64,000 nucleotides of DNA from Octopus sinensis (taxonomy: Eukaryota). The position numbers and the translations under genes are program-made. The stretch lies in assembly GCF_006345805.1 (NCBI RefSeq), contig NC_043017.1:30690001-30754000 (forward strand). Reading direction: 5' to 3'. The stretch's first letter is position 1, and each line of letters starts with the position of its first letter. The notes beneath the pieces were generated by a model. The model did not search any database. It saw only the letters and a list, made by a program, of their open reading frames with translations, and was not told the DNA's origin. This document shows, one piece after another, positions 1 through 63,447 of the stretch.

Positions 1-138
1 TGTTTCTGACGGAGAGCTCCGCTCGAAAAGTTGAACCCTCCTTCATTCTCTCCTTCCTGAGCGTCCAATAATACAATACCTGTTCCACGTCCTCACGTGT
101 TGTGTTTTTTTCTTTGTGGTTTCATGTTGGATTAACTT
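1..138 (+). mobile_element. Penelope-like pseudo-LTR fragment (family P1) with a degenerate minimal hammerhead at 2-36
   Basis: GTTT-CTGACGG-A-GAGC-TCC-GCTC-GAAA-AGTT-GAAC; homologous reverse copy at 54653-54866; runs directly into (TA)n. Confidence 0.65.
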
Positions 139-306
139 TATATATATATATATATATGTATATATATTATATATATATATATATATATATATATATATAA
201 TAATATTATATATATATATTATATATATTATAATATATATATATATACATACATATATATATATATATATATATTGGAAGGTTTGGAGATGATGTACAGG
301 TATTTT

Positions 307-525
307 ATATTAGAAGAAATGAGGTACTCAGAAATCGATGGTGGTTTATATTTACAGATATTTTTCAAATCAAACTTAGTTTGATTTGAAAACCCCACTA
401 GAATGGGAGAAGCGCTAATACATGATCTAAGTTATATGATGTATAAAAAGTGTAATATAATATACAAATAAATATCTGTAAATATAAACCATCCGATTTT
501 CTGAGTACCTCATTTCCTCTAATAT
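307..525. repeat. Short fold-back element between (TA)n tracts
   Basis: Arms ~307-362 and ~471-525 are imperfect reverse complements; internal hairpin TTTCAAATCAAACT-T-AGTTTGATTTGAAA at 363-391. Confidence 0.7.
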
Positions 526-804
526 ATATATATAACATACATATATATATATATATATATATATATAATATATATATATATAATTATATTATATATATAT
601 ATATATATATATACATATTATGACCTATTAAGATCGCTATTTGCAATTACAACTGAAATGAAAAAAATATGGTCGTCAATAAGGTCGATATATGTGTGTG
701 GTGTGTGTGTGCGTGCGTGTCTGCGTGTGCGTGTGTGGATGTGAATGAGTATGTATGCTCGCAGCCGCATGGCTAGAAGGCGTAAAAGCGTAAATGCGTA
801 TATA

Positions 805-2072
805 AGTGATCTGATCAATAAGTATCCGGACTGTAGCTAGAGTAAGGAAGCTGAAGGACGCATACTAAAGTCGCTGACACAGATTGGCCTTGAACTTTGC
901 TGTGCATGCGCAATAATTTTTAACGTTCTAACTCGCTTCCGCTGTTTAAAGCAGTGGAAAGTGTGTTGCGTGTGATTGTCTTATTTACCATGATAGAGAA
1001 ACCTGAGCAAAACCCTGCATCAAATTTTGCCAAAATCTTGTCAATAGGCGCAGGAGTGGTTGCGGGGTAAGTAGCTTGCTTACCAACCACATGGTTCCGG
1101 GTTCAGTCCCACTGCGTGGCATCTTCAGCAAGTGTCTTCTGCTATATCCCCGGGCCGACCAATGCCTTGTGAATGGATTTGGTAGACGGAAACTGAAAGA
1201 AGCCTGTCGTATATATGTATATATGTGTGTTTGTGTACCTGTGTTTGTCCCCCTAGCATTGCTTGACAACCGATGCTGGTGTGTTTATGTCCCCGTTACT
1301 TAGCGGTTCGCCAAAAAGAGACCGATAGAATAAGTACTGGGCTTACAAAAGAATAAGTCCCGGGGTCGAGTTGCTCGATTAAAGGCGGTGCTCCAGCAAG
1401 GCCGCCGTCAAATGACTGAAACAAGTAAAAGTTTAAAGAGTAACTATTTAAAGGCCTACACAAAATTTGAAAACTTTTCAGCGTTTTCGATGCATTCAAG
1501 GAGATCGTGTGCAACTGAAACCCGAGTGTCTTTTTTGGTCAGCTGAAATCAGTTTTTGTACAAACTTGGCAGACACGCGTCTCATACTCACATCTTCAGT
1601 AATAATGGACTGAACTGAACCGTGAACTAATAACCACAACCTCTGATAACTCATGCATGTTGGTTCGACGATATCCCCTCTCAAATACACACACATCTCC
1701 GATGATTTTTCGGTTCTGCTAGTTGCGATCCTCCCAAAACGTTTGGCAATATCGACATTTTATGAGCCAGCTTCGAAACATCTGAACAACTCCTACACTT
1801 GTGTGCAGCTCATACACTCCTCTCCATACACATTATGGAACTTGGCATAGGCCTCTCAACAGGTATCGTCATGACATCATTCCCTGTCATGGTCTAAACG
1901 AGGATCACATGCTACACACCTTCCTTTCAAGTACTGGTGTAGACAGCGGAAGGGAGCTAGGTCTTTAAAATTTAAACTGAATTCATAATCAATCTGTGCC
2001 AATCTGATAAGTATAACGTTCTAGCTTCGTTACTATGGCAACAGTCCGGATAATTATAGTTCGACCTCCGCC
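805..2072. mobile_element. Decayed mariner (Tc1/mariner) element with TIRs, interrupted by a SINE
   Basis: Terminal inverted motif TATCCGGACTGT at ~823 and its complement at ~2041-2052; transposase relics MIEKPEQKPCIKFCQNL (+, ~990-1040) and MRRVSAKFVQKLISADQK (-, in ORF 1496-1696). Confidence 0.75.
1046..1441 (+). mobile_element. tRNA-derived SINE family A (octopus-type, internal microsatellite)
   Basis: A-box-like TGGTTGCGGGG, B-box-like GGTTCAGTCCC; about 10 homologous copies in the window. Confidence 0.85.
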
Positions 2073-2219
2073 ATACATAAATGTTCATATATATACGTAG
2101 TATGTATGTATATATATATATATATATATATATATATATATATATATATATATATATATATATATTATATATATACATACATATATATGTATAGATATAT
2201 ATGTATAATATATATATAG

Positions 2220-60020: not shown

Positions 60021-60539
60021 AACCTTCAAACAATTCTGATTTACTATATACATGCCCCAAAACTCATAGCAAATAAACATTTTCAGAAGGCAATTGCCTA
60101 TGAAAGAATGAATGAAAAAAATATTCTAAAAATACCAGCATCAGAAACACGCGTCAAGCAGGCGTACAAATCTGTGTATTACGGTGTGAAACAGATTATC
60201 CGGATGTTAGGTTCTTTAGTAAATTCACATTGTGTATATAATTCAGTTATCTGCACATTTCTCTTTTTTTACGTTAACGTAACACGAATGTGGTACGAAA
60301 AGAATATGCGCAAAGATAAAAGACACATGTGATCTATATTTACTTCTTAATAATGTTTCAAAAAGAGAAAACAGATCGTAAATTTAAAATACTTTCTTTA
60401 TTTTTAAATCACTGATAAATTGTCAGAAAAAAAAATTCATTTCAAATCAACATGTATTATTGTTTATGATATTTCCCTCGCTTATCATTCTCTCTGTCAC
60501 TCTGTCTGTCTACCTGTCTCACTCTGTCTCTCATTATCT

Positions 60540-60930
60540 GTCTATCAATCAATCTATCTATCTATCTAACTATCTATCTATCTATCTATCTATCTATCTA
60601 TCTATCTATCTATCTAACTATCTATCTATCTATCTATCTATCTATCTATCTATCTATCTATCTATCTATCTATCTATCTATCTATCTATCTATCTATCTA
60701 TCTATCTACCCATCTATCTATCTATCTATCTATCTATCTATCTATCTATCTATCTATCTATCTATCTATCTGTCTGTCTGTCTATCTATCTATCTATCTA
60801 TCTATCTATCTATTTATCTATCTCTTTATCTATCTATCCACCTACCTATTTATCTATCTATATATCTACCTATATCTACTTATTTCTGTCGGCATATCTC
60901 CACGTACTTACATACTTACCTATCTATATA
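60540..60930. repeat. (CTAT)n microsatellite
   Basis: Direct inspection. Confidence 0.95.
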
Positions 60931-62011
60931 TGACACATATGATTATCCATATAAATATTTATAACCTTATTTCTATTAGTCTATCTGTGTGTATGTATAT
61001 ATCTCAATACCTCTTCTAGCATGAATATCTCTTCTAAAGATGTGAATTTGCAATTGTTGTTTATATAATCTATGGATTGAGCGTTAATTTCGATTCATTA
61101 CAAATAGAACGCATACATTCTAAGAGCGCACGCGTGCAGTGCACACAAACACACACACACACACAGACTCAAACACGCAGTAATATTCGTGAGTGTGGGT
61201 GGGTATAGATAGATACATACATACACACATAAATACGAAAACATTATATATATATATATATATATATATATATTTACAGGGTCCCACGTAATCCAGGATT
61301 GGGTCACAAGTATATATGATCATGGGCCATACGATCTAAATACATCAGGCAATCGTTATTCTACCAATTATATACGTTTTTATTATTTTTTGTAATTTAC
61401 TTAATCATTGACTTTTTTATTGTTACTTTAATTTTAATATTTCTATTATATGTAATTTTCAAGATGGTGTAATTTAATTGTTCATTTTGAATTGATAAAA
61501 GGTGGTTCTTTTCTAGTTTTATATATATATATATATATTGTGACGTATATTTGCCATATAAATATGGCTAACCCATAAGGGTGGATGCTACTGTAGTTTG
61601 TAGCCCCAGGAGGACACCTCCTCCAGCTGGCTCTAGACACACTTTCTGTGCCCTATCATATAAATACAGCTGCTTTCGCCTCTAAGAGCAGTTGTATATA
61701 CGAAACTTGACTACGTCGTAGAGCTATAAAAGTAGATAAATAATGTTTTTCCGGACATCAGAAACAAGCTTTTCTCTTCCATTATGTATATGCTTTCCGT
61801 CAGCCGTTTGAACCGACAAATAAATTGTCAGGAAGACTAGATATAGATATATGCTATCGTTCGATGTAAAGACATAGGGCAGATTTTAATTTGCTTGTCT
61901 TTTTCAGTGAATATGTTACAATGTTGATGAAATGAATATTGCTTCGAAAGTTTAGCGCAAGGCCAGCAGTTACGTAAGAAGAGATTAAGGGATCACATGG
62001 ACCCAAGTGTT

Positions 62012-62424
62012 AGATCTTTTCGGTTTGAACGACAGTTTGTAACATAATTTCTAGCTAACCAAAAAATTTTAAACTTCGTATAGTGGTAGAATGTGTTAAT
62101 AAAACATCTTTTTCTCTTGCCTTCATTGAGAAAATTCTATAGTTTGTAAGATATTTGTTGTTTTTTTTTTCTTCAATTTATGCAATTTCAACCAATCATT
62201 GACGTCCATTGAGACAAAAAAAACATTCTGTGCCGTATGAATATGTCCCTTGTTTAAGAAACAGATTGGGTTTATTTACATTTGTGAAGAAAAAAAGATA
62301 CCCTTCCCCCCACTAACCCTAAAACAGATTGAAATGCAATAGATCGATACTAGGGTCATAATTATGGGTGACAATTTTATATGACACCGCTAGAAAAAAA
62401 CTGCCGTTGAAACCGAAAAGGTTT
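62012..62424 (-). mobile_element. Second copy of the TTAGGG MITE, 8-bp TSD, nested in an old SINE-B
   Basis: CAAGTGTT at 62004-62011 and 62425-62432; reverse homolog of 12386-12814. Confidence 0.8.
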
Positions 62425-63158
62425 CAAGTGTTTAATTGGTACTTAGGGATGAACTGTAAATTCAATCACGATGGAATTTGAACCCAGGAGAAAAGACATG
62501 GAGTGCCACTAAGCATTTTGTCTGACTTGGTAACGATTCTACCAGCTCACCGTTTAAATCCAATCAATATTTAGTAATTTTGAAGCATCATTTGTGGGCA
62601 ATGTCGTTTCACTTTATGCAACAAATGCAGGACACTACCCCCAGACACTGAGGAATATTATACATTTCCAATGATTTATAGTATCAATGCTTTGGAGAGA
62701 TCTGACCTTTGTTCAGGTTTAGATACGGAGGAGGTTTTAGGATATTTATTGCATCATATCGATACAAGAGCATATTTACATAATCGGATCGGTATACTAT
62801 ATGTTACGTTGGGCTGTTATAATGCAATACATTGTACGACTAATATATAAAAATGTAAAACTGTAGTTCACAGAACGGACATTGATTTTTAGACGATTGT
62901 AAATATAATAAGCGAGCACATACATACAGACTCATACATATGTGTGTACATGTGTTGGTATTAATGCATATGTATGTATATACATACACGTGAATTGTAT
63001 ACATTCACACACACATACATACGTATATACATATATATATAGATATATATATAATATATATATATATAGATATATATATAATATATATGTATATATATAT
63101 ATATATATATAATATATATATATATATATATATATATATATATATATATATATATATA

Positions 63159-63447
63159 TTTGGTGTAGGAAGAAATGGACTCCTTATTCAATCCGAATTA
63201 GGGACTTTGCAGCCTTTGAAACATATGTAGAAAATAATAAAAAGGAATTTTGTTAAATCTTCGTTCAGCTCCATTTCTTCCTACACTAAATATATAAAAC
63301 TTCAAATTTCCGCACGAAGGCACGGGTTTGAAACCCCATGGTCGTAACCTCTACCGTGATTCTTCTGTTGTGATTTTTGCTACCCAGGTATCGGTTATCA
63401 TTTGAATAATCCGTAATAAGATAATTCATTTATCTACTTCAGTAATT
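63159..63447 (+). mobile_element. Truncated family P2 pLTR with a short inverted 5' arm
   Basis: TTTGGTGTAGGAAGAAATGGA (63159-63179) inverted at 63270-63290; GCAGCCTTT-GAAA-CATATG-TA half-HHR; (TA)n flanks. Confidence 0.65.

Follow-up and report, generated by a model that had tools for sequence, protein, structure and literature searches.

What are the short fold-back elements that lie in or against (TA)n tracts in the genome of Octopus sinensis, and how do they come to consist of two inverted arms with an extension on one side? The question is raised by a stretch of 64,000 nucleotides, here called the window (G000:C21:30690001-30754000 of a 2.72-Gb assembly), which has an AT content of 65% and of which (TA)6+ tracts make up 3.5%. 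An initial annotation had seen in these elements a guild of largely non-coding, hammerhead-bearing derivatives of Penelope-like elements (PLEs). Nine repeat families (A, B, C, D, E, G, H, I and K) have pieces in the window, with about 100 to several thousand genomic matches each, and each of the arm-bearing elements confirmed below belongs to a genome-wide family. These are probably PLE insertions, comprising truncated 3' ends of coding elements and tandem units that lack an open reading frame (ORF); they carry a predicted hammerhead ribozyme, and both strands of the AT-rich target were likely extended from different fixed starts on the RNA.

Two fixed ends and their pairing

Arms were mapped by self-BLAST of the window together with arm maps. 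The layout of arm, arm and one-sided extension that had been described is confirmed in five elements (6882-7410, 8948-9744, 18752-19113, 24541-24824 and 32035-32378; 79-93% over the whole element), with a left-hand extension in those at 18752 and 24541. The element at 63159 has an inverted arm of merely 27 bp (63153-63179), and two more with this layout were found at 275-521 and 6575-6864. Does the layout follow a rule? Two fixed 3' end points were mapped for each of families A, B, C, D, E and H, lying 57, 157, 103, 74, 95 and 64 nt apart, respectively (a second 3' end was not mapped for G). Copies stop at the upstream point (short end) or at the downstream one (long end), the stretch between being the tail. 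All six families show 5' truncation, an inverted 5' copy and a tail at one end, as do I and K in the window.

Two samples of loci were used to count how the ends combine. The first came from pattern searches in genome order, and its solo copies (33 long, 27 short, 14 unclassifiable) predict 49.5% short+long pairs; if ends were chosen independently, the share could not exceed 50%. Among the inverted insertions 48 could be classified, of which 45 are short+long (p=4e-11), two are short+short and one was called long+long (L434, a miscall); 10 more were unclassifiable. The second sample, 43 further inverted pairs chosen by coordinates alone, gave short+long in 35/36 classifiable cases, one short+short and seven unclassifiable (p=4e-10). 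The retrozyme-type arrays of C and H obey the same pairing, and in both the unit sequence continues beyond both ends, so that the start points are internal. Purified Poseidon protein acts in vitro on both strands of AT-rich DNA, cutting them and extending them from two internal reverse transcription starts on the RNA that bound the tail, and ribozyme cleavage is not required (Frangieh 2024, PMC11167929). The pairing counts go further, in that the RNA site differs between the two strands of an insertion.

Is one arm a copy of the other? Among 35 insertions of the non-tandem families, 15 have a short arm that overshoots the long, tailed arm on the 5' side by more than 20 nt and up to ~880 nt, and in these neither arm can be a back-copy of the other. 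The two arms of an insertion are nevertheless more alike than other copies of the family (0.984 vs 0.947 in B, 0.949 vs 0.865 in E, 0.990 vs 0.929 in H), and private variants are common to both, e.g. the same core mutation in the two arms at 6883.

Targeting of (TA)n had also been proposed, and this stands for most families. TATATA was sought within 16 nt of mapped 3' ends, against a background of 7.8% of window positions and 7.2% of far flanks. It is present at 32/36 ends in B, 19/23 in C, 15/26 in D, 24/25 in E and 14/16 in H (together 104/126), and at 18/22 in G. The claim fails for family A, in which merely 7/39 ends have it; here 8-14-bp matches across the insertion occur in 16/28 rows (two insertions counted twice) vs 1.7 in shuffled pairs. 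Family A prefers AT-rich sites with duplications instead of (TA)n.

Hammerhead folds and coding partners

Are the ribozymes real? At the family level all nine families carry a type I hammerhead fold, with predicted self-cleavage: the core features (G5, A6, A9, GAAA, U16.1, H17, a paired 3:8 and three stems) are present, in the order stem I, 7-nt core, stem II, GAAA, palindrome, H17, stem I'. The six stem III palindromes named in the initial annotation all lie in real repeat families, namely ACGT (G), ACGCGT (H), ACATATGT (B), ACGTACGT (C), ACGATCGT (E) and AATATT (A). Family A has GUGAACA plus an extra G, AAUAUU and U17; G has CUGACGA, ACGU and U17; H has UUGACAA or UUGAAAA with ACGCGU; K has UUGAAAA with AGCGCU; and in family I a ribozyme (CUGACGA, ACCAUGGU) is present in 1/10 loci. 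The other four have a large stem II domain, of 54 nt in B (CUGAUGA, ACAUAUGU), 61 nt in C (CCGAUGA, ACGUACGU), 80 nt in D (CUGAUGA, ACACGUGU) and 59 nt in E (CUGAAGA, ACGAUCGU or ACAAUUGU, A17, with U-U at 10.1/11.1 in most copies). These hammerheads had been described as minimal, type I and with a palindromic stem III; the type and the palindrome hold, but B, C, D and E are not minimal because of their stem II domains.

A relaxed descriptor (stem I of at least 3 and stem II of at least 2) finds five sites in the window vs 0.6 (maximum 2) across 40 window shuffles, and with stems of at least 4 and 3 it finds two vs 0.025. Four of the five are family copies (5815-5859, 9362-9450, 29552-29639 on the minus strand and 32193-32235); the fifth (22021) is weak. 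Thus the elements are ribozyme-bearing as families, whereas only these four window copies pass and the others have lost the ribozyme. Both arms at 6883 read CUGAUUA for CUGAUGA, the copy at 54768 reads CUGCCGA and that at 376 lacks one A of GAAA; copies 18752, 24541, 63159 and 6575 are truncated at points downstream of the hammerhead core and hence have no ribozyme. An initial descriptor was too strict to detect the families, since it required CUGANGA and a stem II of no more than ~40 nt. An Rfam scan of the window gave no hammerhead in the best 150 of 206 rows, only low-complexity microRNA (miRNA) matches below the gathering score.

All four Watson-Crick pairs are found at 3:8, that is C:G, G:C and U:A, plus A:U at a locus behind another GIY-YIG ORF (L139). 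The two sides of stem I covary in family E (GCAG/CUGC, GUGG/CUAC or CCAC), where the palindrome also shifts from ACGAUCGU through ACGAUUGU to ACAAUUGU, a path to which CpG decay could contribute. Pairing at 3:8 is associated with palindromy, neither being imposed by the search (22/25/7/36 over 90 motif types; Fisher p=0.003, the types not being independent). For natural tandem pairs the dimer is the minimum-energy fold, at -144.0 vs -125.3 kcal/mol in H (19 below two monomers) and -181.0 vs -168.0 kcal/mol in C (13 below). It is this predicted folding of the C and H pairs that suggests cleavage as a dimer.

More hammerhead families were seen elsewhere in the genome (L128, L139, L296, L300, L307, L041, L095, L230). 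They include the cores UUGAUAA, AUGAAUA and CCGAAGA and the palindromes ACAUGU, ACCGGU, AGUACU, ACAGCUGU, ACUCGAGU and ACUGCAGU, and several lie behind GIY-YIG ORFs.

From what do the families derive? Genome-wide counts of exact patterns are 409 for A, 673 for B, 93 for C, 1,131 for E and 1,553 for G; patterns at the ribozyme and close to the 3' end give 181 and 1,319 for D and 1,675 and 4,261 for H, respectively. Family I has 1,132 first-look candidates, and K was found via GIY-YIG loci. GIY-YIG is abundant in the genome, with 5,029 candidates, of which 150 were scored. The nine families are not one non-coding guild: four are truncated ends of coding PLEs (B, E, G and K), two are of retrozyme type (C and H) and three are unplaced (A, D and I). 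A PLE origin, as proposed in the initial annotation, is borne out by reverse transcriptase (RT) or GIY-YIG ORFs upstream of B, E, G and K, and for A, D and I is suggested by architecture. The description as largely non-coding derivatives fits C and H, which are tandem and ORF-less, and possibly A, D and I, but not the four truncated families. Within the window the copies are non-coding, as the sole long protein-like frame is a fragment resembling a long interspersed element (19816-20490), without a Pfam match.

By protein motifs, read by eye and not from an RT tree, B and E are putative 5'-truncated 3' ends of Hydra-type PLEs, and G and K those of Neptune-type GIY-YIG PLEs. The ORF links differ in extent: RT and endonuclease (EN) for B, a broken EN only for E, and EN only for G and K. 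Copies of B continue upstream into an RT (YRDD, DKT), an Asn-rich stretch and a GIY-YIG without CCHH. Two loci (L291 and L345) have the order RT (YRDD, DKT), GIY-YIG, 3' untranslated region (UTR), family B ribozyme, tail and (TA)n, and L345 as a whole starts with (TA)n and an inverted short arm, followed by the N-terminus, a 787-aa frame, the ribozyme and the long end. The B ribozyme is present in 24/30 of the best EN loci, and the genome has 17,368 first-look candidates for the B EN. The B protein has the DKT motif, no CCHH, and CxxC and CxH near the EN end, as in the Hydra clade; the CxCX5C linker of that clade is present in E and absent from B, which has RWL in place of RWK (L345 sequence). 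The Asn-rich stretch between RT and EN in B (L291 6321-7307 and L292) resembles the Asn-rich inserts of Adineta Penelope (PMC3846280).

For E, the broken EN lies at one locus (L293), ~1.2 kb 5' of the ribozyme, and has a CxCX5C linker; an E-like 3' end is present in 13/19 other loci of a related EN. E also exists as a 1,167-bp tandem form without a PLE protein match. A further tandem family is found in L293 (746-3522), arranged in inverted fashion between TA tracts and with ~487-bp units that are 97% identical; the descriptor found no hammerhead in it. K lies downstream of GIY-YIG in 6/50 loci and G in 3/30. A CX2-5CxxC linker precedes the C-terminal GIY-YIG of G at L509; the linker region of K was not recovered in L133, and the K EN is of the same type.

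Families C and H consist of ORF-less head-to-tail units of 588 bp and ~361 bp, respectively, with one type I hammerhead per unit and ~99% identity between the units of an array. Retrozyme units range over ~170-400 nt, so that H falls inside and C outside. The possibility that H is the pseudo-long terminal repeat (pLTR) of a Hydra ORF was rejected, the junction of EN and H being found in 1/40 matches. That one junction (L593 2713-5204, G000:C1:41650000-41655600) joins a Hydra-type RT and EN to 2.3 H units ending in (TA)n and, as a single case, only hints that Hydra-type enzymes move H. Words of retrozyme H (L426 1340-1700) occur in sequencing runs under seven organism labels from 10 studies.

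No PLE ORF was linked to A, C, D, H or I, in a search with in-frame protein queries that covered 63 loci of A, 88 loci of D up to 7.9 kb and 10 loci of I. Family A is ~210 bp long, with 5' ends from -3 to -21 of the anchor in 30/30 pattern loci, and could represent either a short non-autonomous element or a solo pLTR; unit-length tandem pairs of A or G were absent from the first 100 places listed. Upstream, family D consists of non-coding, AT-rich DNA for at least 1.4 kb; a segment common to D and the K 3' UTR is 80% alike. A Hydra-type EN piece lies head to head with D at one locus (L590), interrupted by another insertion, and is suggestive of a D partner as a single case. A Neptune-type ORF occurs ~900 bp from one family I copy.

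Proposed insertion mechanism and its rivals

How could the paired ends arise? A PLE protein, for which the literature predicts a dimer, would bind the RNA downstream of the ribozyme. Its GIY-YIG domain would nick both strands of (TA)n or, for family A, of plain AT-rich DNA. Reverse transcription primed by one nick would start at the long, downstream site and that primed by the other at the short, upstream site, with the tail as the stretch between. Early termination of both cDNAs and their head-to-head joining would give an inverted pair with a tail on one side; a single surviving cDNA would leave a solo short or long copy. C and H would use the same machinery in trans, with uncleaved multimeric or circular RNA as template, giving multimers. 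An uncut or circular template fits the few 5' ends at the predicted cut and the multimers that read through it. The hammerhead would cut as a dimer via the palindromic stem III and so process multimeric transcripts, while most insertions would be copied across an uncut site. One complex with two active sites is the simplest reading of the pairing.

Several observations weigh against this account. Three inverted insertions are short+short (L407, L368 and L462), a few arms called 'long' in C and H in fact continue into the next unit (L397/L399, L471), and two first-sample pairs are probably duplicates of one insertion each (L397/L399, L436/L438); with the count trimmed to 41/44, p is still 6e-10. 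Gene conversion could also account for the similarity of the arms. The genomic trace of cleavage is scarce, as 5' ends lie within 5 nt of the predicted cut in merely 2/26 cases in H and 1/30 in D, and a definition of 5' ends by cleavage is not supported by these figures. The B EN scores under the Pfam cut-off (20.2 vs 22.6 bits) and the B RT fragment has no Pfam match; the PLE status of A, D and I rests on architecture, as no ORF was linked to them. Frangieh 2024 (PMC11167929) saw no strand difference in the start site, and pairing does not appear in the text covered.

Could a single cDNA have folded on itself and been copied back into the second arm? Palindromes at inverted junctions in Adineta Penelope have been interpreted in this way (PMC3846280), and near-identical arms fit it. 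A back-copy must, however, fall within the first arm, which is contradicted by the 15/35 non-nested insertions, and the end of the short-end arm is fixed per family. Self-priming is therefore improbable as the origin of the arms, although it may explain the small internal fold-backs at some family E junctions; the fold-back named in the initial annotation survives as a shape and not as a mechanism. Miniature inverted-repeat transposable elements (MITEs) or foldback DNA transposons with TA targets would also present long inverted arms, TA flanks and, in the window, copies without an ORF. Such elements have fixed terminal inverted repeats and a transposase partner; here the 5' ends of the arms vary, the 3' ends are fixed and many copies are solo, and for B, E, G and K the reading is refuted by the continuation of the same ends upstream into RT and GIY-YIG ORFs. 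It is thus very improbable. Scarcely to be credited is an assembly artefact, in which reads fold back at TA tracts. A 99% single-copy palindrome centred on (TA)n at 53951-54605 could be one, and there only; the arms of the families differ from each other by 1-8% and recur genome-wide with fixed asymmetric ends.

Two further alternatives touch only parts of the account. The C and H arrays might have grown by local DNA amplification (unequal crossover) after insertion of a solo pLTR, a model discussed by Li et al. 2026 (10.64898/2026.07.22.740005) and in keeping with units that are ~99% identical. We think this unlikely, as the arrays are dispersed, start at variable points inside the unit and have the same two fixed ends by (TA)n, and their inverted partner arms obey the pairing. 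Dispersal, fixed ends and paired arms argue instead for a single retro-insertion of multimeric cDNA. More plausible, though still doubtful, is that the hammerhead folds persist because they bind protein or act in regulation, and seldom cut. PLE hammerheads are slow in vitro (PMC4209133), insertion can proceed without them and they cleave only with protein (PMC11167929). Slower cleavage is predicted from U17 in families A and G, from U4C in family C and from the U-U at 10.1/11.1 in family E, and 5' ends are not concentrated at the cut site. Yet 3:8 pairing and stem III palindromy are kept via compensatory changes across and within families. A structural role of this kind is compatible with insertion from two RNA starts as proposed here.

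How far can this two-start insertion be extended? We lean slightly towards a joint statement: that short+long pairing is general for PLE integration, tail and inverted copy being one event since one complex extends two target strands from two fixed RNA sites; that animal retrozymes are inserted likewise, as multimeric cDNAs; and that this genome has natural hammerheads with all four 3:8 pairs and large stem II domains, which escape standard searches.

Window copies and other repeats

The window begins within the ribozyme of a family G 3' end, followed by (TA)n (1-138, plus strand). Family K is represented by an inverted arm with tail, the long end (275-363, minus), and a short-end arm with a U3:A8 core and AGCGCT stem III, in which GAAA lacks one A (376-521, plus). 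A family H retrozyme-type unit with the long end begins at an assembly gap (5744-6092, plus); its hammerhead motif (5815-5859, plus) has core UUGACAA (U3:A8), ACGCGT, a weakened stem II and a predicted cut after 5854. Then come a short-end inverted arm of I (6575-6688, minus) and its long-end arm with a tail of ~67 nt and no ribozyme (6681-6864, plus). Family B follows with a short-end inverted arm, its core mutated to CUGAUUA (6882-7105, minus), and a long-end arm from which ~80 bp of the tail is deleted (7120-7410, plus). In family C the short-end inverted arm (8948-9215, minus) adjoins the long-end arm (9216-9744, plus), whose hammerhead motif (9362-9450, plus) has core CCGAUGA (U4C), a 60-nt stem II domain, ACGUACGU and a predicted cut after 9445.

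The family D long-end arm (18752-19001, minus) starts at the family's predicted cleavage site, so that this copy has no ribozyme; its short-end partner is at 19002-19113 (plus). The long-end arm of E is cut within stem II (24541-24732, minus) and is followed by the short-end arm (24732-24824, plus). A B-related solo copy has a hammerhead motif on the minus strand (29552-29639) with CCGAUGA, a 59-nt stem II domain, ACAUAUGU and a predicted cut after 29557. Family A has a short-end inverted arm (32035-32179, minus) and a long-end arm that represents the ~210-bp element with its fixed 5' end and 57-nt tail (32171-32378, plus); the motif within it (32193-32235, plus) has core GUGAACA (G3:C8) with an extra G, AAUAUU, U17 and a predicted cut after 32232. 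There remain an E-related solo copy with the short end (33716-33983, minus), two family D fragments with the short end (35228-35334 and 61353-61543, both plus), a solo copy of G with its core mutated to CUGCCGA (54654-54865, minus) and a B-related long-end copy with a 27-bp inverted arm, cut within stem II (63153-63446, plus).

Other repeats in the window were considered as mini-elements and rejected as single-copy. The palindrome at 53951-54605, with 300-bp arms, lies directly beside the 3' end of the G copy and is either very young or an assembly fold-back. An inverted repeat at 44248-44748 has 156-bp arms at 89% and a 190-bp spacer, with no TA tract. The flank of the family C insertion is duplicated and inverted around it (8781-8948 and 9829-9998, 89%), and the insertion's own arms are 99.6% alike; family C apparently inserted at the TA centre of a pre-existing local palindrome. 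Also seen were a repeat resembling a reversed family G tail by a (TG)n/(TA)n tract, which recurs in several loci (63564-63653), a GAAACGGCCGTA motif by a TA tract before the E copy, possibly the decayed end of another family (24363-24446), and a tandem array of 3.6 copies of a 184-bp unit resembling a short interspersed element (SINE), with many dispersed copies in the window (14917-15632). The SINEs of the window resemble those of octopus.

Significance and known systems

What is new here? The ribozyme, the tail, the inversion and the TA targeting are all published PLE traits, and the underlying biology has been described before. Earlier work reports (TA)n targeting, inverted 5' copies and a one-end tail (PMC8557442, PMC3846280), and the initial annotation was right to see inverted partial copies as a PLE insertion product. 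Also known are PLE hammerheads with palindromic stem III, U3:A8, an extra base and opposite-strand pairs (PMC4209133), natural U3:A8 and U4C hammerheads (PMC3088659), and retrozymes with their PLE origin (PMC7229834; Li et al. 2026, preprint 10.64898/2026.07.22.740005). A 2026 octopus repeat annotation counts Penelope-like families, and the word 'ribozyme' is absent from the text covered. Pairing as a rule, natural G3:C8 and long stem II domains were not found in the literature covered, nor did an octopus and hammerhead search find prior reports of these elements; in both cases supplements and subscription papers lie outside the coverage.

Of lasting value are the pairing rule, the retrozyme arrays with a PLE insertion signature and the range of hammerhead variants. 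The origin of tandem and inverted PLE insertions was named as open in Craig 2021, and the pairing rule bears on it. Frangieh 2024 leaves the steps after first-strand synthesis unvalidated, and on these the pairing is a countable genomic constraint. The arrays give support at the level of insertions, beyond co-occurrence and sequence trees, to the notion that PLE enzymes move animal retrozymes. Ends of this kind would be taken for MITEs, SINEs or miRNA hairpins, and Rfam does not see the thousands of predicted hammerheads here.

Among EN+ PLEs, the Hydra clade (Craig et al. 2021, PMC8557442) shares with family B the C-terminal GIY-YIG without CCHH, DKT, and CxxC and CxH near the C-terminus, and with E the CxCX5C linker; the 3'-end hammerhead, (TA)n insertion, inverted 5'-truncated copy and one-end tail are likewise the same. 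Unlike that clade, B has RWL for RWK and an Asn-rich stretch in the linker place, tails are 57-157 nt vs 30-40 bp quoted, ribozymes have 54-80-nt stem II domains and copy number is high (17,368 first-look B EN candidates). The Neptune clade (CX2-5CxxC linker; Craig 2021) is approached by G and K, which end elements whose EN has the linker or the CCHH pattern, with TA-adjacent ends (18/22 in G); K differs in its U3:A8 core, and the placement of G and K is by motif only.

The minimal hammerheads of metazoan PLEs (Cervera and de la Pena 2014, PMC4209133) have the same type I fold, palindromic stem III, extra base between 9 and 10.1 and U3:A8 variant, many unrelated families per genome, and opposite-strand pairs 100-700 bp apart. 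G3:C8 with U17 (A), A3:U8 (L139) and long branched stem II domains were not found in the main text covered, the supplements being outside that coverage. Non-LTR (long terminal repeat) retrozymes (Cervera and de la Pena 2020, PMC7229834; Li et al. 2026) share with H and C the ORF-less head-to-tail units with one type I hammerhead each. They differ in unit length (588 bp in C vs 170-400 nt quoted) and from H in its U3:A8 core; the C and H insertions moreover bear the PLE two-end signature and inverted partners. The word 'tail' is absent from the Li et al. 2026 text covered and 'inverted' from the main text of PMC7229834.

Nearest in mechanism is the Poseidon PAc in vitro system (PMC11167929), where two internal RT starts also bound the tail, both strands are extended, the target is AT-rich and the RNA template is uncleaved. 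Different sites on the two strands of one insertion are not stated in the main text covered, the supplementary figures being outside that coverage. The closest likeness to this system is family A, with its AT-rich target, its duplications and an open frame that runs off the tail.

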